Of a DNA stretch of 64,000 nt, positions 6,265-58,234 are shown one piece after another. The DNA comes from a virus. Lineage: Duplodnaviria; Heunggongvirae; Uroviricota; Caudoviricetes. The translations under genes were made by a program, and so were the position numbers. Under the pieces are notes generated by a model. The model did no database searches. It was given only the letters and a program-made list of their open reading frames with translations, and had not been told where the DNA came from. Where the stretch lies: positions 66,682 to 130,681 of the IMG/VR virus record IMGVR_UViG_3300044295_000252. The stretch is one strand, 5' to 3'. The first letter of the stretch is position 1. Each line of letters opens with the position of its first letter.

Positions 6265-8751
6265 ATGGCATTAGCAAATACATATTTTAACACTGGAACC
6301 TATACCGCGAATGGATACTATCAGCGTATTGGTATACCAACCAAACGTGCGGCATATAATTTACAAGCGTCAAGATCACTGAGATTTCGGGCGAGTGCGT
6401 CTGCGTATTTGAATAGGACTTTTGGGACACCAACTAACGCAAATAAATGGACGTGGAGTGGCTGGGTAAAACGAGGCGTTTTTGGGTTTCAGTCATTATT
6501 TGGGGCAAACGATTTTAACGGGGGTGCGAATACTTCTACTCATCTTTTTTGGATGGGCAGTTCCTCAAGCGAAGTATTTACATTTCAATGGTATAACGGC
6601 GGGTATGTTTCAAGCGTAGCAACAGCAGCGGTTTATCGTGACCCGTCTGCTTGGTATCACCTAGTTTGTGCTTATGATTCAACACAAGCAACGGCAGCAA
6701 ATCGTGTCATTTTGTATGTAAATGGTGTGCAACAAAGTGTTACGTCTTATTCCGGCGGTGCTGCAACATATCCTAGTCAAAATACATCTAGTTTTATTGA
6801 TACCGCAACCGGCCATAGAATTGGTGGGTATTCTAATGGTTATTTCGACGGCTATCTCACCGAGATCAACTTCATTGACGGTCAAGCCCTAACTCCATCA
6901 TCATTTGGTGAATATAATTCTGATAATATTTGGGTACCAAAAACATTTTCTGGTACTTATGGTAATAATGGATTTTATCTTCCATTTAGTGACAATTCAG
7001 CATTAACAACTGCTTCAAATGCAGGACTAGGCAAAGATTTCTCAGGCAATGCAAATTATTGGGTCACAAATAACATTTCTATTACTTCGGGCAGTACATA
7101 TGACAGCATGATTGACGCACCAACTGATGCGGCAAGTGCTACTCAACCTGCTGGTAATTATGCAACTATAAATCCTATTAATTATTTAGGTATACCAGCT
7201 ACCGCAGCTAACACAGTTGTAGATGGCAACCTTAATGCTACAATGGTAGTAGGTACATATTATAACGTTTGTGCTTCTTCTATCGCTCTTCCAAGATCAG
7301 GCAAATATTATTTTGAGGTCAAGTATGCCTCAGGAGGAACAAATGGTGCTTCAGTTGGAGTATTTTCTAATTCTTATGCAGGTACGATAGCCGGAGCAGG
7401 TTGTTTTGGTGTAGATTGGAACGCTAGTGCTCAATATGTTATGCATAATGGTACAAATAGCAGCAGTGCGGATGCTAATTGTCCAAGTGCTAGCGGTCAA
7501 ACCATAGCGGTAGCAGTGGACATGACCGCAGGTCTAATATGGATAGGTTCTGATAGGGCATCGTCTGGAACTATTGCTTGGATGAACAGTGGTGCGCCGG
7601 GATCAGGCACCGGAGCACTAATTTCTATTTCGGGCGGTGGCGGACTTTATGCAGATTGGACCCTAGGTACTAGCGATTGGTATTTTGCATTTACTGGTGC
7701 TTATAGTGGTGGGCAAGTTATGCAAGCAAATTTTGGTCAAAGACCGTTCCTTAATACACCACCAACTGGTTTTTCAGCACTATGTACAGCAAACATCACT
7801 GCCCCGCCCGATGCTTCAAAATGGTTTAATGGAGCAGCACCAGATTTATTATGGATCAAGGATCGTACATCAACATATGGTCATGCAATAGTTGATAGTG
7901 TACGTGGGTTTGAAATGACTTTAAAATCTAATGCTTCTGATGCTGAAGTCAGCATTCCAGATGTATCGGATGTTAATAAATTTGGTATGACCGTAATTGG
8001 TGATACCAATTATCGAGTTAATAAATCCACTGACAAATATGTATATTGGGCTTGGAAAGGCGGCGGCACAGCAGTAACAAATAATGACGGAAACAGAACT
8101 GCATCAGTCAGCGCAAGCACAACTGCTGGTTTTAGCGTTGTAACTTACACATTTTCTACTTCTGCAACAAACACAATTGGGCACGGTCTTGGTGTTGCGC
8201 CATCCATGATTCTGATGAGAAACAGAACTCAAGCATACAACTGGGATGTTTACCATGTTTCGGTGGGGTATACGCAACGACTTATTTTGAACAGCACTAG
8301 TGCAGCAACCTCGGGTTATTGGGCTGCAACACCAACAAACACAGTATTTTCTGTAAGTGCTAGTGATGCTTTAGACAACGATAATATGGTCGCCTATTGC
8401 TTCGCCCCCATAGCCGGATATAGCGCATTTGGCAGTTACACCGGCAACGGCAGCGCAGATGGCCCGTTTGTGTATTGTGGTTTTATACCGCGTTGGATTT
8501 TAATTAAAAGAACAGACTCTACTGCTAATTGGTATTTGTATGACACATCAAGAGCACCATACAACACGACTAATGCATGGCTACAGCCAAACACAACTTC
8601 CGCTGAAAACTCAGCAACCACGTGGGAATTTGATTTGCTTTCCAGTGGATTTAAAGTTCGCAACAACGGTGCTTTTTCAAACGCATCAAGCGGAACTTAC
8701 ATTTACGCCGCATTTGCCGAAACCCCGTTTAACTACAGTCGCGCACGTTGA
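6265..8751 (+). CDS. Paralogous structural / receptor-binding protein with LamG-like domain
   Basis: 828 aa. Shares a ~250-aa block with 3804..6257 (LRFRASASAYLNRT..DPSAWYHLV..YGNNGFYLPFSDNSALTTASNAGLGKD..NYW.TNNISITSG.TYDSMID). Confidence 0.7.
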   Translation: MALANTYFNTGTYTANGYYQRIGIPTKRAAYNLQASRSLRFRASASAYLNRTFGTPTNANKWTWSGWVKRGVFGFQSLFGANDFNGGANTSTHLFWMGSSSSEVFTFQWYNGGYVSSVATAAVYRDPSAWYHLVCAYDSTQATAANRVILYVNGVQQSVTSYSGGAATYPSQNTSSFIDTATGHRIGGYSNGYFDGYLTEINFIDGQALTPSSFGEYNSDNIWVPKTFSGTYGNNGFYLPFSDNSALTTASNAGLGKDFSGNANYWVTNNISITSGSTYDSMIDAPTDAASATQPAGNYATINPINYLGIPATAANTVVDGNLNATMVVGTYYNVCASSIALPRSGKYYFEVKYASGGTNGASVGVFSNSYAGTIAGAGCFGVDWNASAQYVMHNGTNSSSADANCPSASGQTIAVAVDMTAGLIWIGSDRASSGTIAWMNSGAPGSGTGALISISGGGGLYADWTLGTSDWYFAFTGAYSGGQVMQANFGQRPFLNTPPTGFSALCTANITAPPDASKWFNGAAPDLLWIKDRTSTYGHAIVDSVRGFEMTLKSNASDAEVSIPDVSDVNKFGMTVIGDTNYRVNKSTDKYVYWAWKGGGTAVTNNDGNRTASVSASTTAGFSVVTYTFSTSATNTIGHGLGVAPSMILMRNRTQAYNWDVYHVSVGYTQRLILNSTSAATSGYWAATPTNTVFSVSASDALDNDNMVAYCFAPIAGYSAFGSYTGNGSADGPFVYCGFIPRWILIKRTDSTANWYLYDTSRAPYNTTNAWLQPNTTSAENSATTWEFDLLSSGFKVRNNGAFSNASSGTYIYAAFAETPFNYSRAR

Positions 8752-8792: not shown

Positions 8793-9113
8793 ATGCGCGA
8801 TGAAGACTTAATTAAACTATCCAAACTACGGATTGATCAACAAGCCAGTAAACTGGCACTGGCCGAACGTGTTGAGCAGCAATTGTTGGTCACTCATAAT
8901 GGTGGTCTATTCAAAGCTACAACAGAATTGATCACTTTCCTCACCATTTGGACCGATCCCGTTTTATATTTGCGTGATAGCTACAATAATCCCATACGTG
9001 TTGATAGAGAACAATTGCTGATGGAATGCAAAGCCGCATATTGCGCAGCTATGAACGACTGGTATTGTGAATATGAACAAATTAAAAGTCAGCGACGACT
9101 TGGAGATCAGTAA
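8793..9113 (+). CDS. hypothetical protein
   Basis: 106-aa ORF with ATGA-type coupling to the next gene. Confidence 0.45.
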   Translation: MRDEDLIKLSKLRIDQQASKLALAERVEQQLLVTHNGGLFKATTELITFLTIWTDPVLYLRDSYNNPIRVDREQLLMECKAAYCAAMNDWYCEYEQIKSQRRLGDQ

Positions 9114-9931
9114 TGCCAACGCAGGGTGTGATTCTACATGCATTTGGCGCTGGAAGATTTGATTATTACGCCCTAGCAGATACCTGCGCACGTTTGGTGA
9201 CTAAATTTTTGTCACTGCCCATTACATTGGTAACTGACCGTGATACTCAAAACAGTCTTTATGATCGTGTTATAGTTTGTGACAGCCAGTCCAATTACCA
9301 ACGTTGGTTACGTAATAACGACGGCAACACTCAACAAACGATTAACTATACTTATCGTAATGATACTAGATCTCGCAGCCTTGAGTTCAGTCCTTACGAT
9401 CGTACAATACTGTTAGACTCTGATTATTTGGTATTGAACAGTCAATTGCTGAAATATCTACAGGTTGATGCAGCTTTGCAATGTCCATGGCGTGCTTACG
9501 ATGTCACCAACCGCAACAGTTATACTGGTTTTGCTAGGATCAAAAATACTATTGCACAGGCCTGGGCTACTGTTGTGATATTTGATAAAAGCTCAGCAGC
9601 TAAATCTATCTTTGCGCATTGGCGTATGATACAGGACAATTACGAATATTATCGCGAACTGTTGGGAACTAGGGAACATTTTAGAAATGACTATGCCCTT
9701 AGTCTAGCAGCCTACACTATGACGGGCTGCGCGCCCATTACTGAACAATTACCGCCCATGCACATGTTACCCGGTGACAGTTATATTGAAACAATTAGGC
9801 CTGACGGCACTGTCATTATCAACTGTGACGACAAGATCATAAAGTTGAGCAGGACCAATTTACATGTCATGAATAAATTGTGTTTACAAACACCCTGTAT
9901 TCTAGAGGACATCGATGCCATCACAGCGTAA
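9113..9931 (+). CDS. hypothetical protein, paralogue A (possible nucleotide-sugar transferase-like)
   Basis: 272 aa. N-terminal pattern (F.A..DY.AL....A..I......P..LV.D) is shared with the next ORF. No catalytic motif identified. Confidence 0.5.
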   Translation: MPTQGVILHAFGAGRFDYYALADTCARLVTKFLSLPITLVTDRDTQNSLYDRVIVCDSQSNYQRWLRNNDGNTQQTINYTYRNDTRSRSLEFSPYDRTILLDSDYLVLNSQLLKYLQVDAALQCPWRAYDVTNRNSYTGFARIKNTIAQAWATVVIFDKSSAAKSIFAHWRMIQDNYEYYRELLGTREHFRNDYALSLAAYTMTGCAPITEQLPPMHMLPGDSYIETIRPDGTVIINCDDKIIKLSRTNLHVMNKLCLQTPCILEDIDAITA

Positions 9932-10730
9932 GTTTACTGCACAGCGGGGTTTCTTGACCTTTGCACAAAACAGCGAAACCGTTGATTACTTGGAATTATC
10001 ACGGCAACAGGCTGCTAGTATTCGCATGTACATGAAGGACTGGCCCATAGCGTTAGTGGTAGATGAATCAACGGCTGCGCATCTAACTGATCGTGACCGT
10101 AAATTATTTGACCATATAATTACGTTGCGGCAAAATCTTGGCGTGTTTGCAAACGAAGCACAGGCATTTGCCCTAACACCATACAAAGAAACTATTAAGT
10201 TAGAATCAGATTTAGTACTGACTAGAAATATTTCACACTGGATGCCGGGATTTAGACATCACGACATACTGATGCCCAACAAAATTGTAAACTTTAGGAA
10301 TGAAGTCGTGGTGGATCAAACTTATCGTGACTTTTTCCGGCAAAACAATTTACCCAACGTCTATACCGGTATATATTATTTTAGATATAGTGCGACTGCA
10401 AGTGAATTTTTTAATTTAGTTTGTTCCATATTCCGCAACTGGGATACCTTCAAAAACCACTGGCGGCATAGCCCGGACCAAGCCAGCACTGATGTGGTAT
10501 TTGCCATCGCTGCCTTGTTATTTGGGCCAGAACGCTGTACTAATCCAGCACTAAGTTATCCCACCATGGTTCATATGAAGGGTGCAATAAATGGTCTAGC
10601 TGCGGATGCAGATTGGACTCAACATTTGTACAGCCAATTGAGCCAAACAGACTTAATTGTGGGATTTCATAAACAGTTTTACCCTTTTCATTTTTATCAA
10701 AAACATTGGAGACAAAATTATGGACAATGA
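9915..10730 (+). CDS. hypothetical protein, paralogue B of 9113..9931
   Basis: 271 aa. Same N-terminal architecture as the preceding ORF. 17-nt overlap with it. Confidence 0.5.
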   Translation: MPSQRKFTAQRGFLTFAQNSETVDYLELSRQQAASIRMYMKDWPIALVVDESTAAHLTDRDRKLFDHIITLRQNLGVFANEAQAFALTPYKETIKLESDLVLTRNISHWMPGFRHHDILMPNKIVNFRNEVVVDQTYRDFFRQNNLPNVYTGIYYFRYSATASEFFNLVCSIFRNWDTFKNHWRHSPDQASTDVVFAIAALLFGPERCTNPALSYPTMVHMKGAINGLAADADWTQHLYSQLSQTDLIVGFHKQFYPFHFYQKHWRQNYGQ

Positions 10731-11094
10731 GATCGAAGAGTTTTTACGTGGCATAGCTGACTTTGAAGCAAATAGACCCACAAATCCGCCGGTGATTAAT
10801 CGCGTACTGTATAACAAAATGACTGGTGCTCTCGTCAAAAAAATCACCGAAGCGTATGAAAATACAGACGACAAATTGGGTTTATTGGATGTGGATCAAA
10901 CCTATATTCATAATGAAAATCTCATGGATAATTTTTGTGTGAAGGCGGGCGCAATTTGTTTAAAAGAACGGCAAACATTAGACTACTCAAAAAAAGTTTT
11001 GATGTCTAGTGACACTGGCAAGTTTACTACAGCCAAAGACAATATGTTGTTTGTTGCAGCAGATGGCGATCGTTATGACCACAGAAAAAATTAA
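10720..11094 (+). CDS. hypothetical protein
   Basis: GGAGA SD before ATG at 10720 (track ORF starts at 10657). 124 aa. Confidence 0.4.
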   Translation: MDNEIEEFLRGIADFEANRPTNPPVINRVLYNKMTGALVKKITEAYENTDDKLGLLDVDQTYIHNENLMDNFCVKAGAICLKERQTLDYSKKVLMSSDTGKFTTAKDNMLFVAADGDRYDHRKN

Positions 11095-11971
11095 TTTAGC
11101 TGATCTGGATGTTATTTTCCTGACTTATGATGAGCCCAACAAAGAAGCTAATTGGATCGCTATACAAAATATGGTGCCATGGGCTAGACGTGTTGATGGC
11201 GTGAAGGGATCTGATGCTGCACATAAAGCAGCGGCGGCAGCTAGTCAAAGCAATAGGTTCATACTAATTGATGGTGATAACATTCCTGATGTGGGGTTCT
11301 TTGATCTACAACTGGAATTAGATGACCTTAATCGAGACTGTGTGTTTAGGTGGAAGGCCCGCAACGCGATCAACGGACTTATGTATGGCAATGGTGGCAT
11401 CAGTTGTTGGACCAAACACTTTGTCAATAATATGAGAACTCACGAAAACTCAGATGGCAGTGCAGAAACGCTGGTAGAATTTTGCTTCAATCCTCGATAC
11501 ATCGCTATGCATGACTGCTACAGTACCACTTATCCAAATCACAGTGCATTTCAGGCATGGCGTGCTGGATTTAGGGAGGGCGTGAAAATGTGCTTAGATC
11601 GTGGACGCAAGCCCAGTATTGAAGAATTCAACAGAGCAGTACATAAACGTAACTACGACAACCTATGTATTTGGCAAACTATTGGCGCTGACGTTGAATA
11701 TGGGCAAAATGCTATAGAAGGTGCAAGGCTGGGCACGTGGCTTACTATGTTGGGTGACTGGGATTATACCAAGGTCCAGGACTTTGATGAACTTAAAAAA
11801 ACCTGGGACTATTATAGTAACGATACTGATATTATAAAAATTACCCAGCAACTACAAACTAGGCTGGGATTGCCTATTATGGACCTAAGTGCCGAGCAAA
11901 GCAAATTTTTCAAACATCATTACAGAACACAATTCAAAAATAAAGGCATAATGACCTATGAGTCTAACTAA
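11063..11971 (+). CDS. hypothetical protein (contains DGD motif; possible transferase)
   Basis: ~300 aa. Start uncertain (11009, 11063 or 11075). FILIDGDNIPD motif. Confidence 0.45.
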   Translation: MAIVMTTEKINLADLDVIFLTYDEPNKEANWIAIQNMVPWARRVDGVKGSDAAHKAAAAASQSNRFILIDGDNIPDVGFFDLQLELDDLNRDCVFRWKARNAINGLMYGNGGISCWTKHFVNNMRTHENSDGSAETLVEFCFNPRYIAMHDCYSTTYPNHSAFQAWRAGFREGVKMCLDRGRKPSIEEFNRAVHKRNYDNLCIWQTIGADVEYGQNAIEGARLGTWLTMLGDWDYTKVQDFDELKKTWDYYSNDTDIIKITQQLQTRLGLPIMDLSAEQSKFFKHHYRTQFKNKGIMTYESN

Positions 11972-13388
11972 TCCTGGCGACGAAGCCACGGAAAAAGATG
12001 GCAAATTAACCAGCAAGTTTCTATCTGATGCTGAGCGGGCAAAGGAAATGTTAGATGCGGTTAGCCCCAGCTTTTGTTTAGCCAAATGGCAACAGGTTAG
12101 TTTACATTTACCAACAGGCATGAACAATAGTTGCTATCATCCACCTTTACACCCTATACCTCTAGAGTTATTGGATAATAATCCCAGTGCATTACATAAT
12201 ACTCCACATAAGAAACAACAGAGAACGATGATGTTGAATGGTCAGCGACCAAAGGAATGTAGCTATTGCTGGGCGATTGAAGATGCTGGTAATATAAGTG
12301 ATCGTCATTATCGCAGTGGCGAGCCCTGGGCCATCAAAGATTATGATTCCATCAAAGAATTGCATGGTCCGGAAGATGTGACGCCACGTTATGTGGAAGT
12401 AAACTTTAGCAACCTATGTAATTTGGAATGCAGCTATTGTAGCCCCCAGTTCAGTAGCAGTTGGATGACTCAAGCAGAGCAGTTTGGATCATATCCCACA
12501 GTACCAGCGCATAATGATCCCGGTTATTTTACTGGTGCTAGACGACCCATACCCATTAAAGAACATAATCCATACGTAGAAGCATTTTGGCGTTGGTGGC
12601 CTGAACTATATCCTCAGCTAGAGCATTTTAGAATGACTGGCGGCGAGCCACTCATGGATCTTAATACCTATCGTGTGTTTGATTACGTATTAGCTAATCC
12701 CAAACCTAATCTGCACTTGGACGTGACCAGTAACTTTAGCCAGGAGCCGCGTATCTTTAACAGATACATAGATTATGTTAGGCAGCTATGTGATGGCAAC
12801 AATATTGAACATTTCATGCAGTATGTGAGCTTGGATAGTTGGGGCGCCCAAGCGGAATACGGCAGAGCTGGATTAAATTTCAAGTTACTTTGGAACAATG
12901 TGCAGCGATATCTACAGCAAGTGCCCCATAAAAATAGTTTAACTTTTATTATTACCATGAATACGCTGGCCTTGCCCAGCTTGCAACAACTATTGCAGAA
13001 TATCTTGGACCTGCGATGCAAATATAGTCAGTCATATCAGCGAATATGGTTTGATACTCCATATCTGCGTCAACCCAGTTGGCAAAGTTTGAGAACCTTA
13101 CCAGGTGCATACAGCGATTACATAAATCGCAGTATAGCATATATGCAGACCAACATGGAAACAGAAGCCACAAGATTTCATGGCTTCAAAGACTATGAAG
13201 TTCAGCGGCTAACAAGAGTGCGTGATTGGATGTTGGGTGCTCCTGAGCATGATGCGGCACAGGATCGCGCAAATTTTTATAGATTTTTCAGTGAATATGA
13301 TCGTAGACATGGGATTGACTTCGTAACTTGGTTTCCGGAGTATAAAGAATTTTGGGATCAATGCAAATTTTATGCCAAGAATAAATAA
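11958..13388 (+). CDS. Radical SAM enzyme, paralogue 1 (Cys-rich N-terminal extension)
   Basis: CNLECSYC = Cx3Cx2C radical-SAM cluster motif. N-terminal CxxKW..G....CYHP and CSYCW..ED Cys motifs. 476 aa. Confidence 0.75.
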   Translation: MSLTNPGDEATEKDGKLTSKFLSDAERAKEMLDAVSPSFCLAKWQQVSLHLPTGMNNSCYHPPLHPIPLELLDNNPSALHNTPHKKQQRTMMLNGQRPKECSYCWAIEDAGNISDRHYRSGEPWAIKDYDSIKELHGPEDVTPRYVEVNFSNLCNLECSYCSPQFSSSWMTQAEQFGSYPTVPAHNDPGYFTGARRPIPIKEHNPYVEAFWRWWPELYPQLEHFRMTGGEPLMDLNTYRVFDYVLANPKPNLHLDVTSNFSQEPRIFNRYIDYVRQLCDGNNIEHFMQYVSLDSWGAQAEYGRAGLNFKLLWNNVQRYLQQVPHKNSLTFIITMNTLALPSLQQLLQNILDLRCKYSQSYQRIWFDTPYLRQPSWQSLRTLPGAYSDYINRSIAYMQTNMETEATRFHGFKDYEVQRLTRVRDWMLGAPEHDAAQDRANFYRFFSEYDRRHGIDFVTWFPEYKEFWDQCKFYAKNK

Positions 13389-14724
13389 CGAAACAGATTT
13401 AGAATACAAGCAACGAGTACTAGATACTAAGAGCAACAGTTTTTGTGCTGCAAAATGGTATAATGCTACAATTTGGTTGGGTAGCGGTATGACCACAAGT
13501 TGTCATCACCCATTGCCACACAAAATTGATTTACATGCTCTAAGCAATGATCCGTCTGCGTTACATAACACGTCACAAAAAATGGCGGAACGGGCTCTGA
13601 TGCAACGGGGATCTAGACCCAGTGGCTGTGAATACTGTTGGAAAATTGAAGATACAGGTAAAGATGTAGTAAGTGACAGGGTTTATAAAAGCCAAATTTA
13701 CAGTGATGAGGAGTTAGATCGTGCCTTTAACAGTGCGGCAACACAAAGAATTAGCCCGATTACACTCGAAATCGCATTCGACAGAACCTGTCAATTTGCC
13801 TGCTCATACTGCAACCCGGCCTTTAGTACAAGTTGGGTCAGAGACATATCACAATTGGGTCCATACCAAAACTTGCAAAGTGATGGTCGCAATCATTTTA
13901 CTCACGAGCATGCTAGCAGTCAGCTATACGATGTTAATGAAGTAAATCCCTATGTAGAAGCATTTTATGCTTGGTGGGAACGAGACCTCCAATACAGTCT
14001 GCGTGAATTACGTATAACTGGCGGTGAGCCATTAATGAGTCCGCATATCTGGCGTTTGTTAGAATGGTTTGAGTTAAATGGCAGTCATATTCAATTTGCC
14101 ATTAACACTAACTTAGGCGCCAAACGTGATATCATAAACAGATTCATAAGTCACGCGAAACAAATACATAAACTTCAGGTCTATACCAGTTGTGAAGCCA
14201 CTGGCACTATGGCCGAATACATTAGAGACGGATTGGTTTGGGAAGACTGGCAGTATAACTGTGAGCGTATTTGTGCAGAAGCTAAACCACAAGGGTTTCA
14301 TATGATGTGTACCATTAATGCTTTATGTTTATGGGATTTGCCTGACTTTTTATATTGGTGCATGAATATGAAAGAACGTTATGGCAGAGACTTCCCCACC
14401 TTCACACTTAATATTCTGAGATTCCCCAGTTTTCAAAGTCCACTTGTCCTACCCAAAGAGATTTTGCTAGAACGAGCCCATGAACTATCACAGTGGTTGC
14501 AGCAAAATCGTAATTCTACATTATTACATCAAATGGAAATTAATCATATTGAACGTTTAGTAGAATATCTACGCACGGTAGACAGTCCACATACTGGTGC
14601 TAGCAGCAAAGAGCAGTTAGCGCGGGACTTTAAGAACTTTTACACTCAATATGACTCTAGACGCGGCAAGAATATGCGTAAAGTTTGGCCACAGCAATTA
14701 TTAGACTGGGTTGACAGTATATGA
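13372..14724 (+). CDS. Radical SAM enzyme, paralogue 2
   Basis: CQFACSYC (Cx3Cx2C). Same N-terminal Cys motifs (CAAKW..SCHHP, CEYCWKIED). 450 aa. Collinear with paralogue 1. Confidence 0.75.
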   Translation: MPRINNETDLEYKQRVLDTKSNSFCAAKWYNATIWLGSGMTTSCHHPLPHKIDLHALSNDPSALHNTSQKMAERALMQRGSRPSGCEYCWKIEDTGKDVVSDRVYKSQIYSDEELDRAFNSAATQRISPITLEIAFDRTCQFACSYCNPAFSTSWVRDISQLGPYQNLQSDGRNHFTHEHASSQLYDVNEVNPYVEAFYAWWERDLQYSLRELRITGGEPLMSPHIWRLLEWFELNGSHIQFAINTNLGAKRDIINRFISHAKQIHKLQVYTSCEATGTMAEYIRDGLVWEDWQYNCERICAEAKPQGFHMMCTINALCLWDLPDFLYWCMNMKERYGRDFPTFTLNILRFPSFQSPLVLPKEILLERAHELSQWLQQNRNSTLLHQMEINHIERLVEYLRTVDSPHTGASSKEQLARDFKNFYTQYDSRRGKNMRKVWPQQLLDWVDSI

Positions 14725-15827
14725 CTAGTGAAACCTTCTGCTGTTTACCCTTTATGCATTTGGCTACGCATCCAAATGGCGCAATCAGTCTATGTTGCGA
14801 AGCCAGCACCCAAGGTAAAACACTAAGCAATAACATAGAAGCACATAGACCCTATAAGTTAGCACAAGATAAACTGGTTGATGCAGTAAATAGTGAAAAT
14901 TTTTGCCAGTATAGGCGCGAAATGATAGCTGGTCAATGGCCCAAGCCCTGTGTAACTTGTAAAAACAAAGAAGCACAGGGACAACAAAGTAAGAGGCAAC
15001 GAGAGAATCGTCGCTGGCTGCCCATATTCAGTGAGCAAGAATTAATTAACAGATCAAATGCTGATGGTAAACTAAACAAAATTAATTTTGGTTTTATAGA
15101 ATTACGTTTAGCTAACACCTGCAATAGTGCATGTATAACTTGTAATCCAATAAGTAGCAGTCGCTGGATACAGGATGCTGATGCATTACAAAAATGCTTG
15201 CCTTGGTATCAAAATTTTTATACAAGCGAAAACAATTGGACTAACAACCCTCAAATCTTTGATGAGATAGCAGAACATTGTTCTGAGCTTAAGGAAATTT
15301 ATATCAATGGTGGCGAGCCTACACTGATACCACAGCATTATGCCTTATTAGATCGATTAGTAGGTAATAATAGCAGCAAAAATATTCGTTTACATTACAG
15401 TATAAATTGCACTAGATTGCCCAGCGAATTGGTTGATTTGTGGTTAAGATTTAAACAAGTAAACGTCAGTTGCAGCATTGATGAACTTGCTGAACGCAAT
15501 AATTACATACGTTGGCCAACCGAATGGGGAACCGTTTTAAACACCATCAACAAATTGCGTCACCATGCTAATACTACTATAATTACTGGTATTACACAAA
15601 CTGTTAGTATTTTTAATCAACATAGACTAACAGAGTTTGAATCGTTTGTTAAAAATATGTGGCCCAAAATGAATATCTATAAAAATTATTTAACTGAGCC
15701 TCATTATCTACAGGCTAATTTGCAGGACAACACCAAGTTTAGGGAATTTGTCAAAGCCATGGATCAAATACGACAAACAGATTTTGTCAAGACCTTTCCT
15801 GAATTGTCACACTTGTTAGATGAATAA
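14721..15827 (+). CDS. Radical SAM enzyme, paralogue 3
   Basis: CNSACITC (Cx3Cx2C). N-terminal FCCLPFMHLATHPNG..SLCC motif. ATGA overlap with the upstream gene. Confidence 0.75.
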   Translation: MTSETFCCLPFMHLATHPNGAISLCCEASTQGKTLSNNIEAHRPYKLAQDKLVDAVNSENFCQYRREMIAGQWPKPCVTCKNKEAQGQQSKRQRENRRWLPIFSEQELINRSNADGKLNKINFGFIELRLANTCNSACITCNPISSSRWIQDADALQKCLPWYQNFYTSENNWTNNPQIFDEIAEHCSELKEIYINGGEPTLIPQHYALLDRLVGNNSSKNIRLHYSINCTRLPSELVDLWLRFKQVNVSCSIDELAERNNYIRWPTEWGTVLNTINKLRHHANTTIITGITQTVSIFNQHRLTEFESFVKNMWPKMNIYKNYLTEPHYLQANLQDNTKFREFVKAMDQIRQTDFVKTFPELSHLLDE

Positions 15828-17100
15828 ACCACCACAAAACTTCTGTATGGCACCGTGGACTCATACTTATATTAGTCCACAGCATGAACGTCGTATGTGT
15901 TGCGCTAGTCGCGAACCAGCTCGCGGATTTAAACAATATATAGATACCGCAGAAGGCGACAATACCTATAGACCACAATCACTAGAAGAACACTGGAACA
16001 GCGAACACATGCGTAGTGTACGTCGTCGTATGCTAAGTGAGGAAGAACTGCCAGAATGTGAAGTATGTAATACCAAAATACTCAATACCAGCGTATATAG
16101 AAGTTACTTTAACCAACTTTTCCTACACAAATATCAGCAGGTATTGACCAGCACCGATACAACTGGTCATACCACAATGACACCAGTCAGCTGGGACTAT
16201 AGATTCAGTAATCTATGCAACTTTAAATGCAGAATGTGTGGAGACATGTTAAGCAGTGCATGGGAAACAGAGAACCGTGAACAGGGCAAAACTGAAGCAT
16301 GGATGCAGCCCGATATTAGGCGACAGATACAGCAATTTACTGATCAAGTTGTGATAAAAGAATTTGTTGAGGCAATAGAAAACAAAACTATTGAGGAAAT
16401 TTATTGGGTCGGTGGTGAACCATTGATGTGGGATATACATTGGCATGCGATGAAACGTATTATTGAGTTGGGCTATGCTACGCGAGTCTATCCCAGGTAC
16501 AATACCAATCTCAGCAGAGTAACCTATCAAAACCATAACCTGTTTGATTTGCTTAAACACTACAGAGACTGGCAGATATGTGCCAGTATAGATGCAACTG
16601 GAGACACCGGCGAATATATTAGGACAGGTCTTAACTACCAGCAATGGTTAGAAAACTTTGAACAGGGTGTGGCCATACAAAGAAATAACAGACAAATGCG
16701 TATTGACCTAACACTTACATTGCCGGGAATGTTTGATCTCGACAATATTGTGGCATTGGCTGACCGCTTACAAGTAGAAATCTTGACTAAGGTCTGCTTT
16801 GCATTTGATTCCGATATATTAATGAGCCCTATGTGTTTGCCCAGACCCTTGCTGAACAATTTATTGGATCGTCAGTTAAGTAAATTAACAAATAGTCGTC
16901 ACAGAAGCCTAAAAGAAGTTTTGGAAAATATGTATCATCGCCCAGTCTTTGCAGAGCAGTGGCCTGAACAATATGCGGCTGCGGCACAGCGTGGTAAACA
17001 ACGATTGTTAAAGTTGGAATCAATTAGACACTGCAATACAAATATGTCCAAGATCCTATCTGCGGATGCCGAAATACTGGCATGGTGGGAGTCTATCTAA
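15820..17100 (+). CDS. Radical SAM enzyme, paralogue 4
   Basis: CNFKCRMC (Cx3Cx2C). N-terminal FCMAPWTHTYISP..RMCC motif. 426 aa. Confidence 0.75.
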   Translation: MNKPPQNFCMAPWTHTYISPQHERRMCCASREPARGFKQYIDTAEGDNTYRPQSLEEHWNSEHMRSVRRRMLSEEELPECEVCNTKILNTSVYRSYFNQLFLHKYQQVLTSTDTTGHTTMTPVSWDYRFSNLCNFKCRMCGDMLSSAWETENREQGKTEAWMQPDIRRQIQQFTDQVVIKEFVEAIENKTIEEIYWVGGEPLMWDIHWHAMKRIIELGYATRVYPRYNTNLSRVTYQNHNLFDLLKHYRDWQICASIDATGDTGEYIRTGLNYQQWLENFEQGVAIQRNNRQMRIDLTLTLPGMFDLDNIVALADRLQVEILTKVCFAFDSDILMSPMCLPRPLLNNLLDRQLSKLTNSRHRSLKEVLENMYHRPVFAEQWPEQYAAAAQRGKQRLLKLESIRHCNTNMSKILSADAEILAWWESI

Positions 17101-18407
17101 TGTATGATGTCTTTTATAAAACAATACCCACGGGATTGTTTGCCCACGAACGACCGGCTGACAATTTAGATCACGCCGCAGCACAATGCCGCACCAAGTT
17201 TTTTTGGTACTTGGATGGTGTAAATGATTACAGCGATTTTGACTGGCATTGGCAACCTGCGCCCTGGGAACAGGAATTTACTCATATATTTGGTACACAG
17301 TGGCAACGGGACGGTGGTGCTGTATTTAGAGCCAAAACTGTAAAAGAACCTATAGATCATTTTCAAACGGCATTTACAGCGCGCCGCAAACTCAGCAACA
17401 ATGTTATTGATATTGGTGTTGGCACTGGCAACTATTTTGCAGACGTGGAACGTGCTACGAGTTCAGCAGAGTCCAGTCATGTTTGGATCAAACACGATAT
17501 GATCGATTGTGATCAATTTGATTTCAGTTGGCATCCCGACCATTACCAGGACAACTTGATGCACATTTTTGGCAGTCGTGATGACGTGCCTGGCAGTTTA
17601 CTTTATTTGCCGGTTAAAGACTTTTGTGCATACACAGAGCAATGCCGTCAGCACCCCACAGATTCCGCTCCACAATTAGTAGATTTCGCACGAATTCGAC
17701 GCCATACCAGCGCAAAATTGCAGGAAAAACCCCTGGATATCATCTATATCAGCAACGGGGAACCTGATGCAGAGCAGTGGTACAGACATGCTGTAAATAT
17801 AGCTCACAGGCCCATTCATAGGGTCATGAATGTACCCGGCAGGGCGGAAGCATACAAGGCAGCAGCACGAATGAGCACTACTGACTGGTTCTTTACGGTG
17901 TTCGCCAAATTGTCAGTAAGTGCTAACTTTCCCTGGGACTGGCAACCCGATCGCACCGAGCGTGAGCAGCATTACATATTCCACGCCAAAAACCCCGTCA
18001 ATGGGCTTGAGTATGGGCACATGGCCCTGCTGGCCTATAATAAGCGCCTAGTACTTGAAACCAACGACTGGGGCTTAGACTTTACCCTGAGCAGGCCACA
18101 TTGCGTAGTGCCTATATTCAGTGGGACCGCATACTTTAACGCAGATCCTTTCATGACTTGGCGCACCGCATTTCGTGAAGTGCTGAAATTAGTTCATACT
18201 GATCGCACTGCGCCCACTATTCCCAACCTGTATAGATTGCAGACATGGCTCAATACCGCACAAGGACCCAATGCGGAATATTGTTTGGCTGGCGCCAAAG
18301 ATGCTGTAGCTTATTACGACGAAGTTGGTGGTGACCTGCCCAAGTTATTATTAAGCTTTGAATGGCCCTGGCTTAGGGCTCGGTTTGAAGAAACTTGCAA
18401 ATTTTAG
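17082..18407 (+). CDS. hypothetical protein (441 aa)
   Basis: Long ORF, last gene of the + strand arm. Its 3' end overlaps the 3' end of a convergent - strand gene by 35 nt. Confidence 0.5.
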   Translation: MVGVYLMYDVFYKTIPTGLFAHERPADNLDHAAAQCRTKFFWYLDGVNDYSDFDWHWQPAPWEQEFTHIFGTQWQRDGGAVFRAKTVKEPIDHFQTAFTARRKLSNNVIDIGVGTGNYFADVERATSSAESSHVWIKHDMIDCDQFDFSWHPDHYQDNLMHIFGSRDDVPGSLLYLPVKDFCAYTEQCRQHPTDSAPQLVDFARIRRHTSAKLQEKPLDIIYISNGEPDAEQWYRHAVNIAHRPIHRVMNVPGRAEAYKAAARMSTTDWFFTVFAKLSVSANFPWDWQPDRTEREQHYIFHAKNPVNGLEYGHMALLAYNKRLVLETNDWGLDFTLSRPHCVVPIFSGTAYFNADPFMTWRTAFREVLKLVHTDRTAPTIPNLYRLQTWLNTAQGPNAEYCLAGAKDAVAYYDEVGGDLPKLLLSFEWPWLRARFEETCKF

Positions 18408-19485
18408 AAGCCACTTCTTCTACTTCGGTATCTGTAAGTTCAGGATATATTGGTAAACTTAAACAAGTTTTGCAATGTTCATCTGCCATGGGATATTCGT
18501 GTGGTGCAGAATATACATTTAGATCGTAGGCTGGTAGTGGTATTTCATAGGTCAACTTTGTTTCAATTGAACAAGTGGCAAGGAAGTTTTGCAAGGTGTA
18601 TCTGCGAGGAGTATGTATCACATACTTACTATAAGCAGGAGTAATCCTGTTATCATATTGCATAGTTTGCACTACAGGACTTAAAATACTGTCATAATAT
18701 GCTGCAATATCCCGTCTGCGTTCCTGCCACTTTTCAAAGTAGTTATATTTGATCAGCATCTGTGCACAGTCAACTTCGCTCATCCTACTATTAGTGCCAG
18801 ATTCTATATGAGAACCTGCGATTCCATGTTTATGCATACTGCCTACATCCAGTGCTAATTCAAAGTCATCCGTAAGCACCATACCACCATTGCCATAATT
18901 ATTGAAATTTTTCGTAGGATCAAAACTTAAACAGCTGATGGTACCCAAACTGCCGCTGGGTCTATTTTTAAAACTAGCGCCAAAGCTTTGGGCAGCATCT
19001 TCTATTATGGGAATATCATTACCAAAAAACTTTGTTACCAGTTGAAGCTTTTCATAGTCTAATATATTACCATAGAGATTTACATACAGTACGATATCAA
19101 TTTGTTTAGGGTCCTGAATTTTGTCCAGATCCAACAAACCATTGGCATCAATATCGCAAAACACAGGTCTACAACCGGCTTCATATACTGCATTAAGTGT
19201 TGCTATAAAACTAACCGTAGGAACCAATACACGCGGAATGTCTACAGGCCTTCTATTCTTTAAAGCTCTTAGCGCAAATATTAGTGCTTCAGTGCCACTG
19301 TGTACCGGTATGGCATGTGACCTACCGCAATGCCACTTCATTCTGGAGACAAAACGTGGAGAACTTCCGCTGTCCATCAACATGCCGGATTTCAATACCG
19401 CGTCTGTGACCGACAATATTTCTTCGCGTATTCGACTATACTGGCGCGCTATGCCATAAAGAGGTATTTTGTAAGTACCATTCAT
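18373..19485 (-). CDS. PLP-dependent sugar aminotransferase (DegT/DnrJ/EryC1/StrS family)
   Basis: Family-typical N-terminus (IPL.....QY..I..EI..A...VL.SG). LSFDPTKNF..GNGGMVLTDD block with the active-site Lys. Start probably at MNGTYKIPL (19485; track start 19539). Confidence 0.8.
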   Translation of the reverse strand: MNGTYKIPLYGIARQYSRIREEILSVTDAVLKSGMLMDSGSSPRFVSRMKWHCGRSHAIPVHSGTEALIFALRALKNRRPVDIPRVLVPTVSFIATLNAVYEAGCRPVFCDIDANGLLDLDKIQDPKQIDIVLYVNLYGNILDYEKLQLVTKFFGNDIPIIEDAAQSFGASFKNRPSGSLGTISCLSFDPTKNFNNYGNGGMVLTDDFELALDVGSMHKHGIAGSHIESGTNSRMSEVDCAQMLIKYNYFEKWQERRRDIAAYYDSILSPVVQTMQYDNRITPAYSKYVIHTPRRYTLQNFLATCSIETKLTYEIPLPAYDLNVYSAPHEYPMADEHCKTCLSLPIYPELTDTEVEEVASKICKFLQTEP

Positions 19486-20425
19486 AGTATCGTTTAAATC
19501 CTTCTTCCACGTTGATCTGTGGATTAAATTCAAAATCACTTTTTGCTTGTTGGATATTTAAATTTCCTCTACTGGGGTAATTGCCGTCACGATCCAACAC
19601 ATGAATATTTCCGCGACCCACAATATCCACAATCAGCTTTGCCGCTGACAATAAGGTGTGCTGCCTGCAATCACTGCGAGTAATATTGTAGATCTTGCCT
19701 GCGGTATTTGTTGATAACGCAGCCTGTACTATGCCACTAGCAGTATCATCCACATGTGTAAAGTCCAATACCTCGCTGGAACCGTGTACCTTAATGGTTT
19801 CGTCGCGCAGTGCAGAAACTATGAACTTACTTACTACACGGTCTTCCACGTCATATTCACCATAGACCGCACTGGGCCTAATAATCACGTATTCCATGCC
19901 GGTTCTGCGGCTGTAATCCTTTACCAATTGCTCACCAGCATATTTGAGTATTGCATATTGACCCTGCGGTCTACAGGTGTCAGACTCGGTAACTCCACTG
20001 GTAAAGTCACCATATACCATGCTGCTACTAATATAGACAAAACGTTTTACCTTATGCCTAGCAGCGTGTTCAAGCAAGTTTATTAGTCCAGATATCATTA
20101 CTTCCGAAGCATATACAGGATTAATGGCCACAGCTCTTTGCCTAGGAAAACCTGCTAAATGTATTACGGTGTCAGCCGTGGCTCTACAGTAAGCTACATC
20201 AATCAATTTGGTATCAGTAATGTTAAATGCTATGGACTTTGAATTAGTCTTTTTTTCACGTAACTGCATTACCGCATTTAATTGATTTCTTGGCAAAATA
20301 TCGTAATCTGTCCTATTGTCCACGTCATAAACTGTATGACCCTGATCCAATAGTAATTTAACTACATTATGTCCAATAAATCCCATACCGCCTGTAGTTA
20401 AGAAATTCATGTGTCTGTACCCCAA
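19436..20425 (-). CDS. NAD-dependent sugar epimerase/dehydratase (SDR family)
   Basis: GGMGFIGHNVVKLL Rossmann motif. YAILKYAGEQ (YxxxK catalytic dyad). 329 aa. Confidence 0.85.
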   Translation of the reverse strand: MGYRHMNFLTTGGMGFIGHNVVKLLLDQGHTVYDVDNRTDYDILPRNQLNAVMQLREKKTNSKSIAFNITDTKLIDVAYCRATADTVIHLAGFPRQRAVAINPVYASEVMISGLINLLEHAARHKVKRFVYISSSMVYGDFTSGVTESDTCRPQGQYAILKYAGEQLVKDYSRRTGMEYVIIRPSAVYGEYDVEDRVVSKFIVSALRDETIKVHGSSEVLDFTHVDDTASGIVQAALSTNTAGKIYNITRSDCRQHTLLSAAKLIVDIVGRGNIHVLDRDGNYPSRGNLNIQQAKSDFEFNPQINVEEGFKRYYEWYLQNTSLWHSAPV

Positions 20426-20625
20426 CGCAATAGATAGTAAGTATAATCTTCTGCATTTAATGATCCTGTGACCGCTACGTGATTTCTATAATCATGCATT
20501 TGAAAGCATACATGAATTTTAGGTTCTCCTATCACATGCTGCATAACCCAAGTACCCTTTTCAGTTTGTTGCCATTCTGATATGGGAAATGCAGCATAGA
20601 CATAAGGATCCTCCACATCGCCCAT
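20407..20625 (-). CDS. hypothetical small protein
   Basis: Track ORF 20407..20706 overlaps thyX by 43 nt. Likely starts at internal Met (MGDVED). Confidence 0.35.
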   Translation of the reverse strand: MGDVEDPYVYAAFPISEWQQTEKGTWVMQHVIGEPKIHVCFQMHDYRNHVAVTGSLNAEDYTYYLLRWGTDT

Positions 20626-20663
20626 GGTAAATTTGTGTAAAACTATATTATCAACCTGTTGAA

Positions 20664-37172: not shown

Positions 37173-37376
37173 ATCTATTTCCTTTAATTAAAGTTAATAC
37201 CTTAAACCAATATTTAGTGTATAACAACTGCTGAGAAAAGTAAACAGTTAATTATGCCAAAACAATGGCACATCGAAATGTGCCACTGTGGTAGTTGGGT
37301 AACAAGGCCTATTTCCCGCCCCGTGAGGTTTACGCCGCTAGGCGAAGATCCTCAGAATAAACGTTGTCATTTGCGT

Positions 37377-37574: not shown

Positions 37575-37587
37575 AAAAAATCCCTTT

Positions 37588-37615: not shown

Positions 37616-37699
37616 GTCCAGAACACATTTTACTTCACTTCATACAGCAATAGACTACAGTATATATTTATTTTTAACCAAGGTCAAATTAAAGTCATT

Positions 37700-53331: not shown

Positions 53332-54532
53332 AAAGCTTAGATCTTATTTTAAAAATTGATTTGGGGTACAAGACGTTTTGATAGGAAAAATAATCCTCAA
53401 TCCAATTTGGTTGAATAGTATTACTTAAGTATTTTAAGCCATCTAAAAATATTTTTACTTGAGGTTCGTTACCTTTAGTCCAAAACCATGAATCCCTTGA
53501 ACTAAGGAAATTGCCCGTAATTGATTTAGTTATAAGCCTATTTGATATATCCCAGTAGGGATAAATCAATGTTTTAAAATTGTCTATTTCTAATAATTTT
53601 CTGCCCTGCCACAAAACAAACGCATTCTCGTCTTTTATTGATTGATTTTTCAATGAGTTTCTAATATTATCATTATTTGACAAGAAGTTTTTTATTATAT
53701 GCGCTTGTTTGATAATGATTTTAGCAGAAGCTGAAGTCGGTCCCCAGTAAAACAATTCATTTGATATAGAATTGTGATTTGAAGTTTGTTGTGGTCTTAA
53801 TGAAAAAATCCCATCTATCACATCAAGGAAATAGAAGAAAAATTTGCCATTTTTTATAGTCAATTTAGGCTTTTCTCCGCCCCACAGCAAACACACCCTC
53901 TTGCCGGATTCGGTTATTCTTTGCCATTCCGGAACAAGATTTTCTAATTCACCTTTAGCTTGGCAATATGCGCTGCCATAATTATTGATCCAATGTATGA
54001 AGTCTAATTGCGTATTTTTATTGTAAAATTTTAAGGTTTGTTCGGTGATGTCCAACAACCTTATTTTAGTTTTCAGTTTATATTGTTCAATCAAATTTTC
54101 TATTTTTGGCTTGCCTACGTTAAATACTTCAAAATTATGGAAACTATTTTGATTTCTAGACCCATTCATATTCGTTAAACAACATACTTCATCTAAATAA
54201 ATATTATTTCTAACAAAAGTCTCAAGTATATTGCCCGAATCTGCACCACCACCGTACATCAAAATTATGTAATCAAACCTATGTCTTAATTCTAATGCTT
54301 TGTCAATATAACATGCTTCTAAAGATACGCTGGGTTCCTGTTTCCAATCAAACGAACTAAAAAAATCGTCGTGGTAATGCCAACTTACATCTCGAGGATC
54401 ATTGGTTAAAAGCATTAGATCATACTTATTATTAAATTTTAAGTTTTGAAAAAGATAATAACCATAATAGTCAGTATCTGGCGAAAGAATAGATGTCATT
54501 TTACTAAAATAGTTATTTTGTTCTTGCTTCAT
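53321..54532 (-). CDS. hypothetical protein (403 aa), AT-rich
   Basis: Long ORF. No recognised motifs. Confidence 0.5.
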   Translation of the reverse strand: MKQEQNNYFSKMTSILSPDTDYYGYYLFQNLKFNNKYDLMLLTNDPRDVSWHYHDDFFSSFDWKQEPSVSLEACYIDKALELRHRFDYIILMYGGGADSGNILETFVRNNIYLDEVCCLTNMNGSRNQNSFHNFEVFNVGKPKIENLIEQYKLKTKIRLLDITEQTLKFYNKNTQLDFIHWINNYGSAYCQAKGELENLVPEWQRITESGKRVCLLWGGEKPKLTIKNGKFFFYFLDVIDGIFSLRPQQTSNHNSISNELFYWGPTSASAKIIIKQAHIIKNFLSNNDNIRNSLKNQSIKDENAFVLWQGRKLLEIDNFKTLIYPYWDISNRLITKSITGNFLSSRDSWFWTKGNEPQVKIFLDGLKYLSNTIQPNWIEDYFSYQNVLYPKSIFKIRSKLYEL

Positions 54533-55643: not shown

Positions 55644-55719
55644 ACTGTAGTTTATAATGTACCACTTGTTAAGTCAAACACATTTATTTAAGTGTTTGTC
55701 TGCTTCTATAAGTAAAAAC

Positions 55720-58228: not shown

Positions 58229-58234
58229 GCCATC

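Follow-up and report, generated by a model that had tools for sequence, protein, structure and literature searches.

An array of radical-SAM paralogues with N-terminal twitch domains among glycosyltransferase-like genes next to the fibre genes of a tailed phage

The DNA considered here, called the window, is a stretch of 64,000 nucleotides (nt) from the tailed-virus record IMGVR_UViG_3300044295_000252 (record positions 66,682-130,681), and all coordinates are positions in it. Directly downstream of fibre-like genes it carries an island in which four tandem paralogues of radical S-adenosylmethionine (SAM) enzymes with an N-terminal twitch domain can be found together with glycosyltransferase (GT)-like proteins of two types, a sugar aminotransferase and an extended short-chain dehydrogenase/reductase (SDR) (Table 1). 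The original prediction, made from the bare sequence, had pointed to this group of open reading frames (ORFs), all of which are present in the ORF list where it had placed them.

Gene content of the island

The ten plus-strand genes between 8793 and 18407 form an unbroken chain, each start overlapping the preceding stop through a TAATG or an ATGA or by 8-20 nt. They encode, in this order, proteins of 106, 272, 271, 124 and 298 amino acids (aa), the four radical-SAM proteins (476, 450, 368 and 426 aa) and a protein of 435 aa, whose gene overlaps at its 3' end with the 3' end of the DegT-type aminotransferase gene. The latter and the SDR gene converge on the chain from the minus strand.

By profile score, the four island radical-SAM proteins are clear members of NF033640 (NCBIfam N_Twi_rSAM, "twitch domain-containing radical SAM protein"; curated cutoff 170 bits). 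The E-values of 1e-87 to 1e-95 exclude a chance match, and the alignments run from model positions 1-2 to 393-397 of 398 in three paralogues, with positions 1-320 as the best stretch in paralogue 3. The CX3CX2C motif can be found in each protein (CNLECSYC, CQFACSYC, CNSACITC and CNFKCRMC in paralogues 1 to 4) and, in an alignment of five sequences, this motif (C154, C158 and C161 in the numbering of paralogue 1) and a GGEP motif (G228-G229-E230-P231) are invariant, as are four N-terminal cysteines (C40, C59, C101 and C104, spaced C-x18-C-x41-C-x2-C in paralogue 1). With pairwise identities of 18-32% (32% between paralogues 1 and 2), scores of 292-318 bits and overlapping junctions, the array of four divergent, tightly coupled paralogues is as the original prediction had described it. 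The Cys-rich N-terminal motifs quoted there (...C[CY]HP and CxYCWxxED) hold for paralogues 1 and 2, but paralogues 3 and 4 keep the cysteine pattern only, and a fifth member of the family, located outside the island, had been missed. The N-terminal extension is also seen by the Pfam SPASM model, which in paralogue 4 covers residues 9-84 (27.2 bits; cutoff 21.5) and in the fifth protein residues 29-99 (27.8 bits, together with a Radical_SAM match); paralogue 3 has a Radical_SAM match of 38.5 bits and a weak N-terminal SPASM match. The start of paralogue 3 was set at 14721 because the first twitch cysteine is otherwise lost. The public gene calls on identical contigs of the Joint Genome Institute (JGI; L003, L004 and L006) shorten this gene to 357 aa, dropping the first twitch cysteines, and give the DegT-type aminotransferase as 336 aa, with a loss of about 35 residues of its Pfam-matched N-terminus.

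Housekeeping identities were considered and rejected, the island paralogues scoring 16-25 bits on MoaA (cutoff 284), 17.5-19.6 on QueE (260) and 18.2 on NrdG2 (131). With scores so far below the cutoffs, the non-housekeeping character claimed by the original prediction stands, and the mapping to a family such as QueE that it had named as counter-evidence is not what is found. The AlphaFold (AF2) model of paralogue 4 is confident, with a predicted local distance difference test score (pLDDT) of 88.7. Its Foldseek neighbours, none of them close, include both the peptide-modifying SkfB, SuiB and EpeE, with SkfB and SuiB as the top matches, and the small-molecule enzymes BlsE, viperin, MoaA and DesII. 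Since these neighbours are mixed, the fold assigns no functional subclass to paralogue 4: the structure-based placement suggested with the original prediction yielded a good model but matched generic cores only, which is uninformative on the subclass. No function or characterised member of NF033640 was found in the searched literature.

Two lineages of GT-like proteins accompany the array. The "GT-like" call made for the 272-aa and 271-aa proteins is supported by a joint profile (A3, the two paralogues with their relatives) that matches residues 24-134 of glycogenin-1 over about 100 residues (E 4e-5). This alignment spans the nucleotide-binding half and the DxD position, where an Asp is invariant; neither protein is matched by Pfam, the Glyco_transf_8 model included. 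The two "unknowns" predicted next to them are present, but as ORFs of 145 and 320 aa they had been over-extended and really correspond to the 124-aa and 298-aa proteins of Table 1. The 298-aa protein (hereafter u320) has no sequence match in Pfam, NCBIfam or the PDB. Its AlphaFold model (pLDDT 84) adopts a GT-A nucleotide-diphospho-sugar transferase fold, with SunS, ThuS, RmlT and TarP as Foldseek neighbours. In this family, a DGDN motif that hardly varies and a first strand resembling that of GT2 enzymes favour, at the sequence level, a transferase. A GT-A Rossmann-like fold with a DxD after the fourth strand is found for the family formed by the 298-aa and 435-aa proteins; neither belongs to a curated GT2 sequence family, and their status as transferases rather than nucleotidyltransferases is putative.

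The 435-aa protein (u441), predicted as a 441-aa unknown, is present but most likely starts at 17100, and turns out to be a paralogue of u320. Its residues 210-438 (441-aa numbering) match the u320 hidden Markov model (HMM), a match that is partly circular as the region was included in that alignment; independent homologues score 1e-39 to 1e-55. Two weak, partial copies of the u320 domain, degenerate in sequence, can be found at its N-terminus, whereas its C-terminal copy is a full one; related proteins of other phages are up to 1210 aa long and hold further domain copies. By tblastn, u441 is connected to both u320-like genes of the cultured Ralstonia phage RsoM2USA. A common origin of the u320 and glycogenin-like lineages was also considered, and an hhalign profile comparison shows no relationship between them, leaving two separate GT lineages.

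The DegT identity proposed for the first minus-strand gene is correct, PF01041 being matched over its full length (model positions 3-359 of 360; cutoff 19.8), but the gene most likely starts at 19485 (370 aa) and not at the GTG that would give 388 aa. The nearest solved structures are 7b0d (1e-52) and then WbpE and QdtB, that is, 3-aminotransferases rather than 4-aminotransferases; no NCBIfam equivalog cutoff is reached. Its neighbour, predicted to be an NAD epimerase/dehydratase, is indeed an extended SDR with an NAD-binding Gly motif (GGMGFIG) and a YxxxK motif (YAILK). A 4,6-dehydratase of the RmlB/DesIV kind was rejected: the segment ISSSMVYG aligns with VSTDEVYG of 2hun, 6bi4 and 1r66, so that the Asp-Glu pair is missing, and the score on TIGR01181 is 144.7 bits against a cutoff of 365. 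Because this pair is missing, the enzyme is taken to be of the epimerase or oxidoreductase type.

Upstream, the 807-aa fibre-like protein (Ala 20, Ser 14, Val 14 and Asn 12%) is encoded by a gene with tandem repeats of 87 nt (29 aa) and 21 nt (7 aa) for NAVS-type motifs, with 23 NAVS and 7 ETH[VI][ND] in total; these repeats could form a coiled or beta-helical shaft or serve as a Ser-rich glycosylation target. Its C-terminal ~125 aa match a virion structural protein of phage PA5oct. In related phage contigs the island is directly preceded by relatives of this protein, and upstream of it related loci also carry relatives of the 817-aa protein (30-50% identity). Homologues of the 828-aa protein found by tblastn in Pelagibacter, Methylophilales and cyanobacterial podophages are annotated as fiber, virion structural or lectin proteins. 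With relatives so annotated, the location just 3' of fibre genes is as predicted.

Table 1. Coordinates of the island, its upstream neighbours and a second radical-SAM locus in the window
Feature	Position	Strand	Remark
807-aa fibre-like protein, candidate acceptor	1350..3773	+	Ala/Ser/Val/Asn repeats
817-aa Laminin_G_3 (concanavalin-like) protein	3804..6257	+	Pfam PF13385, 47.8 bits
828-aa DUF7483 protein, fibre/virion structural homologue	6265..8751	+	Pfam PF24299, 335 bits
106-aa small protein (s106)	8793..9113	+	First gene of the chain; stop overlaps next start (TAATG)
GT8-like (glycogenin-like) paralogue 1, putative GT-A transferase, 272 aa	9113..9931	+	Joint profile A3; LLDSD at DxD position
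GT8-like paralogue 2, putative GT-A transferase, 271 aa	9915..10730	+	Joint profile A3; KLESD at DxD position
124-aa protein	10720..11094	+	JGI gene call on identical contigs (L003/L004/L006)
298-aa GT-A-fold protein (u320), putative glycosyltransferase	11075..11971	+	New, highly conserved family; fold and conservation
N-twitch radical-SAM paralogue 1, 476 aa	11958..13388	+	NF033640, 317.8 bits; core, conserved
N-twitch radical-SAM paralogue 2, 450 aa	13372..14724	+	NF033640, 294.5 bits; core, conserved
N-twitch radical-SAM paralogue 3, 368 aa	14721..15827	+	NF033640, 291.7 bits; variable member
N-twitch radical-SAM paralogue 4, 426 aa	15820..17100	+	NF033640, 292.4 bits; core, conserved
435-aa multi-domain paralogue of u320 (u441)	17100..18407	+	C-terminal copy matches u320 HMM
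DegT/DnrJ/EryC1-type pyridoxal phosphate (PLP) sugar aminotransferase, ~370 aa	18373..19485	-	Pfam PF01041, 234 bits
Extended SDR, NAD-dependent sugar epimerase/oxidoreductase, 324 aa	19436..20410	-	Pfam Epimerase, 147.6 bits
Non-twitch radical-SAM gene	54513..55643	-	Adjoins fifth N-twitch gene
Fifth N-twitch radical-SAM gene, outside island	55657..57024	+	NF033640, 258.2 bits
NAMPT	58235..59614	-	Ends second radical-SAM locus

Conservation in phages and links to glycosyl transfer in bacteria

Both the radical-SAM and the u320 families are very abundant in metagenomes. In a protein search whose unit was clusters at 90% identity, no fewer than 8000 homologues were scored for paralogue 4, with identities around 60%, and no fewer than 8000 for the 298-aa protein, with identities around 70%, all of them with E <=0.001; paralogue 1 is matched by 4,894 representative clusters (50% identity) with E <=1e-3. 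At least 599 IMG/VR contigs, many of them of 320-375 kb, encode a close relative of paralogue 4. Gene order was compared in 80 IMG/VR loci, where it reads fibre gene, s106, two GT8-like genes, small ORF, u320, radical-SAM array, u441 and then, on the minus strand, degT and sdr. In more detail, paralogues 1 and 2 are followed by one to four variable members, paralogue 4, further genes and the multi-GT-A protein. Identities of 55-70% are typical of paralogues 1, 2 and 4 and of the 298-aa protein (across the clade, 55-62% for paralogue 1 and 54-63% for paralogue 2), whereas the middle paralogues, including the relatives of paralogue 3, reach only 22-35%. Of 60 related loci, 47 have a DegT gene no farther than 3 genes from the u441-like one. 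Even the small genes keep their places: counterparts of s106, 24-41% identical to it, hold its place in 19 related loci and, as gene 354, in RsoM2USA, and a small ORF of about 119 aa occupies the position of the 124-aa protein in 45 loci, the latter having no family match in Pfam, NCBIfam or PHROG.

Complete related loci hold 5-8 radical-SAM genes and several accessory genes that are absent from the window. In the 40 loci used for accessory-gene counts, a NodU/CmcH-type carbamoyltransferase and, directly after the last radical-SAM gene, a 363-aa unknown (F1) are each present in 39, and a multi-copy family of about 369 aa (F2) in 35; DUF6071 proteins are usual as well. A P-loop kinase/cytidylyltransferase-like protein can be found in 15 loci, a dCMP deaminase inside the island in 10 and an SGNH/GDSL protein in some. 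The carbamoyltransferase, the kinase/cytidylyltransferase-like protein and the SGNH/GDSL protein would enlarge the sugar-pathway content of these loci. The F1 and F2 profiles have no match in PDB, Pfam or NCBIfam; a TEK-containing motif of F2 may recall GT10 fucosyltransferases. Genes missing from the window can be seen, for example, in L001 (12973-15868) and L026 (13313-14797). Since related loci hold more radical-SAM and accessory genes, the island of the window is best read as a reduced version of one that uncultured jumbo phages of a large, RsoM2USA-like clade have kept. No near-identical DNA to the window exists among deposited phage genomes.

Beyond this clade, tblastn of paralogue 4 against phages returns only Vibrio phages K566 and K567 (24% identity), RsoM2USA being found solely through the 298-aa protein, and tblastn of paralogue 3 against plasmids gives no match. 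In K566, four N-twitch radical-SAM genes form a cluster that lacks these GT families and likewise lies a few genes from an NAMPT gene. A marine T4-like environmental genome is reported to carry 12 radical-SAM genes (PMC5332604). Together with the K566 cluster, this shows that radical-SAM arrays recur in large aquatic phages. The fifth N-twitch gene of the window belongs to a second radical-SAM locus (51563-59614) composed of TctC-like and NMO/FabK-like genes, a 403-aa unknown, two radical-SAM genes and small ORFs, followed by NAMPT.

In bacterial genomes scanned with the u320 alignment, u320-like genes are accompanied by GT genes and, in some cases, by radical-SAM genes. A Pseudobdellovibrionaceae contig carries, beside dnaB, a GT2, an N-twitch radical-SAM, a second GT2, a GT2/GT7-like and a u320-like gene, and in a Halobacteriovoraceae contig the u320-like gene is flanked by three radical-SAM and two GT2 genes. 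The new GT-A family and N-twitch radical-SAM genes are thus found amid GT2 genes in chromosomes of Bdellovibrionota. In Ruegeria it occurs with GT1, GT28-like and FkbM methyltransferase genes, and actinomycete relatives neighbour GT2 and GT4 genes. Homologues of the new GT-A family (u320 and the C-terminal domain of u441) with 27-37% identity also occur in cultured roseobacter and actinomycete genomes, namely Ruegeria, Cribrihabitans and Tateyamaria (L124, L125 and L129) and Parvibaculum, Micromonospora, Salinispora, Streptomyces, Nocardia and others (L154-L169). None of these roseobacter and actinomycete loci matches the radical-SAM proteins of the window, and annotated neighbours in Ruegeria, Salinispora, Actinosynnema and Saccharopolyspora include GT1, GT2, GT4 or FkbM genes.

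Several of the best metagenomic representatives of paralogue 1 are fusion proteins. P0264 joins a u320-family domain (local HMM E 1.5e-46) to a radical-SAM module and is matched by the MYDVF N-terminus of u441, P0302 joins a GT2/Glyco_transf_7C domain to such a module and P0294 a GNAT domain. In P0241, P0242 and P0245 a single chain comprises two or three entire N-twitch radical-SAM modules, for example a paralogue-1-like and a paralogue-2-like module in 950 aa, an arrangement which suggests that adjacent paralogues may work as a complex. Taken at the level of sequence, the fusions and the bacterial neighbourhoods support a tie between this radical-SAM type and glycosyl transfer.

Other features of the window concern the phage and its host. 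Its large-phage gene content includes a DnaE-type polymerase, NAMPT, an RNA ligase, a MoxR/VWA pair and the thymidylate synthase ThyX. A group I catalytic intron lies at 62466-62660 on the minus strand (Rfam RF00028, 55.9 bits; gathering score 50), and a promoter and terminator consensus scan stays at the level of shuffled sequence, the island having no informative sites. A permuted two-piece transfer-messenger RNA (tmRNA) can be found at 37263-37701 on the minus strand (Rfam tmRNA_permuted 144.7 bits, beta_tmRNA 117.7 bits), with ANDNVYSEDLRLAA as the tag peptide given by ARAGORN. The betaproteobacterial type of this tmRNA and the Ralstonia host of the cultured relative RsoM2USA hint at a betaproteobacterial host. 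Contigs bearing the island (L090-L108, L130 and L142) have also been deposited inside metagenome-assembled genomes labelled Polynucleobacter, Fischerella, Haliscomenobacter, Legionellales, Rickettsiales, Neomarinimicrobiota, Bifidobacterium, Pacearchaeota and others; because fibre genes and the whole island are present, they look like binned jumbo-phage contigs, and their labels were set aside as host evidence except as a weak hint.

Proposed function and competing explanations

From the family assignments, folds, synteny, conservation and fusions observed here, we infer that the product is a glycan, that the radical-SAM enzymes react with it and that a fibre is its acceptor. A soluble glycan-building and radical-tailoring island acting on a virion protein, probably a fibre, is thus proposed with moderate confidence. 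Among the options raised by the original prediction, unusual amino-sugar glycosylation fits best with the GT-A fold of the former unknowns, the fusions of GT and radical-SAM domains and the bacterial GT2 neighbourhoods. In such a pathway, the minus-strand pair of SDR and PLP-dependent DegT aminotransferase would supply an amino sugar, and four soluble GT-A-type proteins, two of them GT8/glycogenin-like and two of the new GT2-like family, would transfer sugars. The N-twitch radical-SAM enzymes would abstract hydrogen by means of the 5'-deoxyadenosyl radical and so tailor the sugar or the growing glycan; candidate reactions are oxidation to a keto-sugar that could feed the aminotransferase, as in the BtrN/BtrS pair discussed below, epimerisation, dehydration and C-C bond formation. 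The three conserved paralogues would perform fixed steps and the variable paralogue 3 a lineage-specific one, the acceptor being glycosylated in the cytoplasm during late infection.

A virion protein, probably the tail fibre, is the likeliest acceptor because the chain of overlapping genes directly follows the fibre genes and contains no membrane protein, because it keeps its place in the structural region even in the distant RsoM2USA, and because genes for membrane-associated export or assembly of polysaccharides are lacking. No 19-residue segment of the island proteins reaches 1.6 on the Kyte-Doolittle scale, as a membrane span would, and Pfam and hydrophobicity scans recognise no Wzx, Wzy or initiating transferase in the window. 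These same observations bear on a rather unlikely explanation in which the product is a modified sugar, an oligosaccharide or an aminoglycoside-like metabolite without attachment to the virion. Such a product could be soluble or could remodel host-envelope glycans, which might block superinfection or stop progeny from sticking to debris. It would agree with the chromosomal GT clusters of the bacterial homologues, presumably made for cell-surface glycans, with the carbamoyltransferase and kinase/nucleotidyltransferase-like protein of related loci, as in antibiotic and Nod-factor pathways, and with the location of DegT and SDR in a minus-strand, non-structural operon. A trio of DegT, radical-SAM and amidinotransferase genes in cyanophages has likewise been called "antibiotic synthesis genes" (PMC12801897). 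However, neither a membrane protein nor a flippase, a polymerase or an initiating phosphoglycosyl transferase is recognised in the window, the whole plus-strand chain of ten genes is coupled to the fibre genes, and the structural or tail-region position is kept in RsoM2USA.

Several observations weigh against the proposed virion glycan. The enzymatic roles of its members are putative, being read from sequence and predicted structure. DegT and SDR share a minus-strand operon with ThyX, and what ties them to the island is an adjacency conserved in one syntenic clade. The K566 radical-SAM cluster lacks these GT families and lies away from obvious structural genes, and the RsoM2USA module does not directly follow fibre genes of the type seen in the window. 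The predicted fold of paralogue 4 does not separate peptide from sugar substrates, and one further fusion protein, P0265, carries its radical-SAM module next to a subtilase fragment.

The last two points would suit a different explanation, which we consider quite unlikely, namely that the radical-SAM paralogues modify a fibre or other structural polypeptide in the manner of peptides that are made on the ribosome and then modified post-translationally (RiPPs), through epimerisation, thioether formation, C-C cross-linking or hydroxylation, with the GT-like proteins glycosylating or scaffolding it. SPASM/twitch enzymes are often peptide maturases, the top Foldseek matches of paralogue 4 (SkfB and SuiB) as well as EpeE act on peptides, the peptide S-glycosyltransferases SunS and ThuS are among the nearest structures to u320, and a fibre with Ala/Ser/Val/Asn repeats lies 5 kb upstream. 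Weak matches to several RiPP maturases do occur in NCBIfam, but no equivalog model comes near its cutoff (15-43 bits vs 265-650). The auxiliary domain is N-terminal with four cysteines, in contrast to the C-terminal seven-Cys SPASM domain, which is absent here. Neither a precursor peptide nor a PqqD-like RiPP recognition element (RRE) domain is matched in 8793-18407 by Pfam, NCBIfam or PHROG, the fusions and bacterial neighbourhoods indicate glycosyltransferases and not peptides, and the bacterial clusters have no fibre-like gene. The C-methylation, epimerisation or thioether formation on the fibre suggested by the original prediction has thus no RiPP sign in its favour, with neither a C-terminal SPASM nor a Pfam-recognisable RRE or peptide-maturase domain.

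Its other suggestion, DNA hypermodification, fared no better and is regarded as very unlikely. Here, the GT-A proteins would glycosylate a modified base after replication, and the radical-SAM, PLP and SDR enzymes would elaborate the appended group. Radical-SAM and PLP enzymes, with a P-loop kinase, take part in known pathways of thymidine hypermodification, and a GT-A fold is present in the base-J glucosyltransferase. In addition, thymidylate synthase genes border the island (ThyX here, a ThyA-family gene in L001), and the dCMP deaminase and the P-loop kinase of related loci could be seen in the same light. Yet ThyX looks canonical, with an RHR...S...S.R motif and a strong Thy1 match, and no 5-hmdU DNA kinase, DNA glycosyltransferase, hydroxymethylase, aGPT-Pplase-like or DNA-binding domain is recognised in the island by general family libraries (Pfam, NCBIfam and PHROGs over 8793-21332, no dedicated models being used for these enzymes). 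Moreover, the same pairing of GT-A and radical-SAM genes occurs in bacterial chromosomal GT2 clusters, and the island is coupled to fibre genes, not to replication genes.

Returning to the virion glycan, a broader proposal can be put forward tentatively, and with more doubt than the reading itself: the N-twitch radical-SAM family may be an unrecognised class of glycan-tailoring or glycan-protein cross-linking enzymes, an obligate partner of the new GT-A family, which jumbo phages would have expanded to 4-8 paralogues carrying out radical steps one after another. If so, the fibres would bear a hypermodified sugar coat made by a chemistry unlike known viral or bacterial protein glycosylation. 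Both families have no function in the searched literature despite their abundance, and the fusions and the phage and bacterial neighbourhoods lead to a concrete hypothesis, that of radical chemistry coupled to glycosyl transfer. Should it hold, radical-SAM sugar or glycoprotein chemistry would be added to phage virion biology, and new catalysts for the functionalisation of carbohydrate C-H bonds would become available. It could also explain how receptor-binding surfaces diversify in a widespread jumbo-phage clade, with consequences for host range and for evasion of immunity or defence.

Comparison with known systems

What is already known comprises the name of the radical-SAM family and virus-encoded glycosylation as a kind of system; what is new here is an array of N-twitch radical-SAM proteins partnered with an unrecognised GT-A family and conserved across a very abundant jumbo-phage clade. 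The original prediction had stated that no described phage system combines these genes, and no description of the combination in phages was found in the searchable literature; nevertheless, the module is present without annotation in RsoM2USA and in at least 599 IMG/VR contigs, and the radical-SAM family had been named. The definition of NF033640, with its N-terminal four-Cys domain followed by a CX3CX2C core, agrees with the proteins described here, as scores of 258-318 bits over nearly the full model are reached by RsoM2USA gp349 and by all five N-twitch proteins encoded in the window. It does not include tandem arrays of 4-8 divergent paralogues in a phage glycosyltransferase island.

The closest biochemical analogy can be found in the butirosin 2-deoxystreptamine pathway, where the twitch radical-SAM enzyme BtrN oxidises a secondary alcohol to a ketone, which is then transaminated by the DegT-family enzyme BtrS. 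Both settings join a four-Cys twitch radical-SAM enzyme to a DegT-type PLP aminotransferase, acting on a sugar-like substrate in the butirosin pathway and, as an analogy only, on a putative one here. The C-x18-C-x41-C-x2-C spacing is similar to the cysteine spacing of BtrN, and the N-terminal 80 residues of the paralogue profile align weakly with its C-terminal twitch domain (E 0.008). However, the twitch domain is C-terminal in BtrN and N-terminal here, the similarity is marginal and BtrN is outside the top Foldseek matches.

Among the glycosyltransferases, glycogenin and GT8 enzymes differ from the two GT8-like proteins in that only the N-terminal half aligns and that the first Asp of the DxD is a Glu in one paralogue. 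The GT2-type SunS and ThuS share 10-13% identity and TM-scores of about 0.3 with u320, with no sequence-level relationship, and no glycocin-like precursor lies near the island. The virion-glycosylation systems compared were the Mimivirus fibril glycans, chlorovirus PBCV-1 A64R and mycobacteriophage capsid and tail glycosylation; to our knowledge, none of them involves radical-SAM enzymes. Relative to these, virion glycosylation is a putative function in the present clade, and the radical-SAM array is the dominant and most conserved component of the island.

The nearest relative in culture is RsoM2USA (MG752970), a 343.8-kb Ralstonia jumbo myovirus in which the module lies downstream of the tail sheath and virion proteins (PMC8504454). 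Its genes 354-348, all annotated as hypothetical, follow the same order, with a small protein, two GT8-like genes, a small ORF, u320, an N-twitch radical-SAM gene and a u320-like gene. Identities amount to 28% between gene 352 and GT8-like paralogue 2, 41% for u320 and 37% between gene 349 and radical-SAM paralogue 1. The genome paper makes no mention of radical SAM or of ORF349/350 (PMC8504454). RsoM2USA differs from the window in having one radical-SAM gene instead of four, with DegT not adjacent and SDR upstream, and with this one-enzyme version in a cultured phage the question becomes directly testable.

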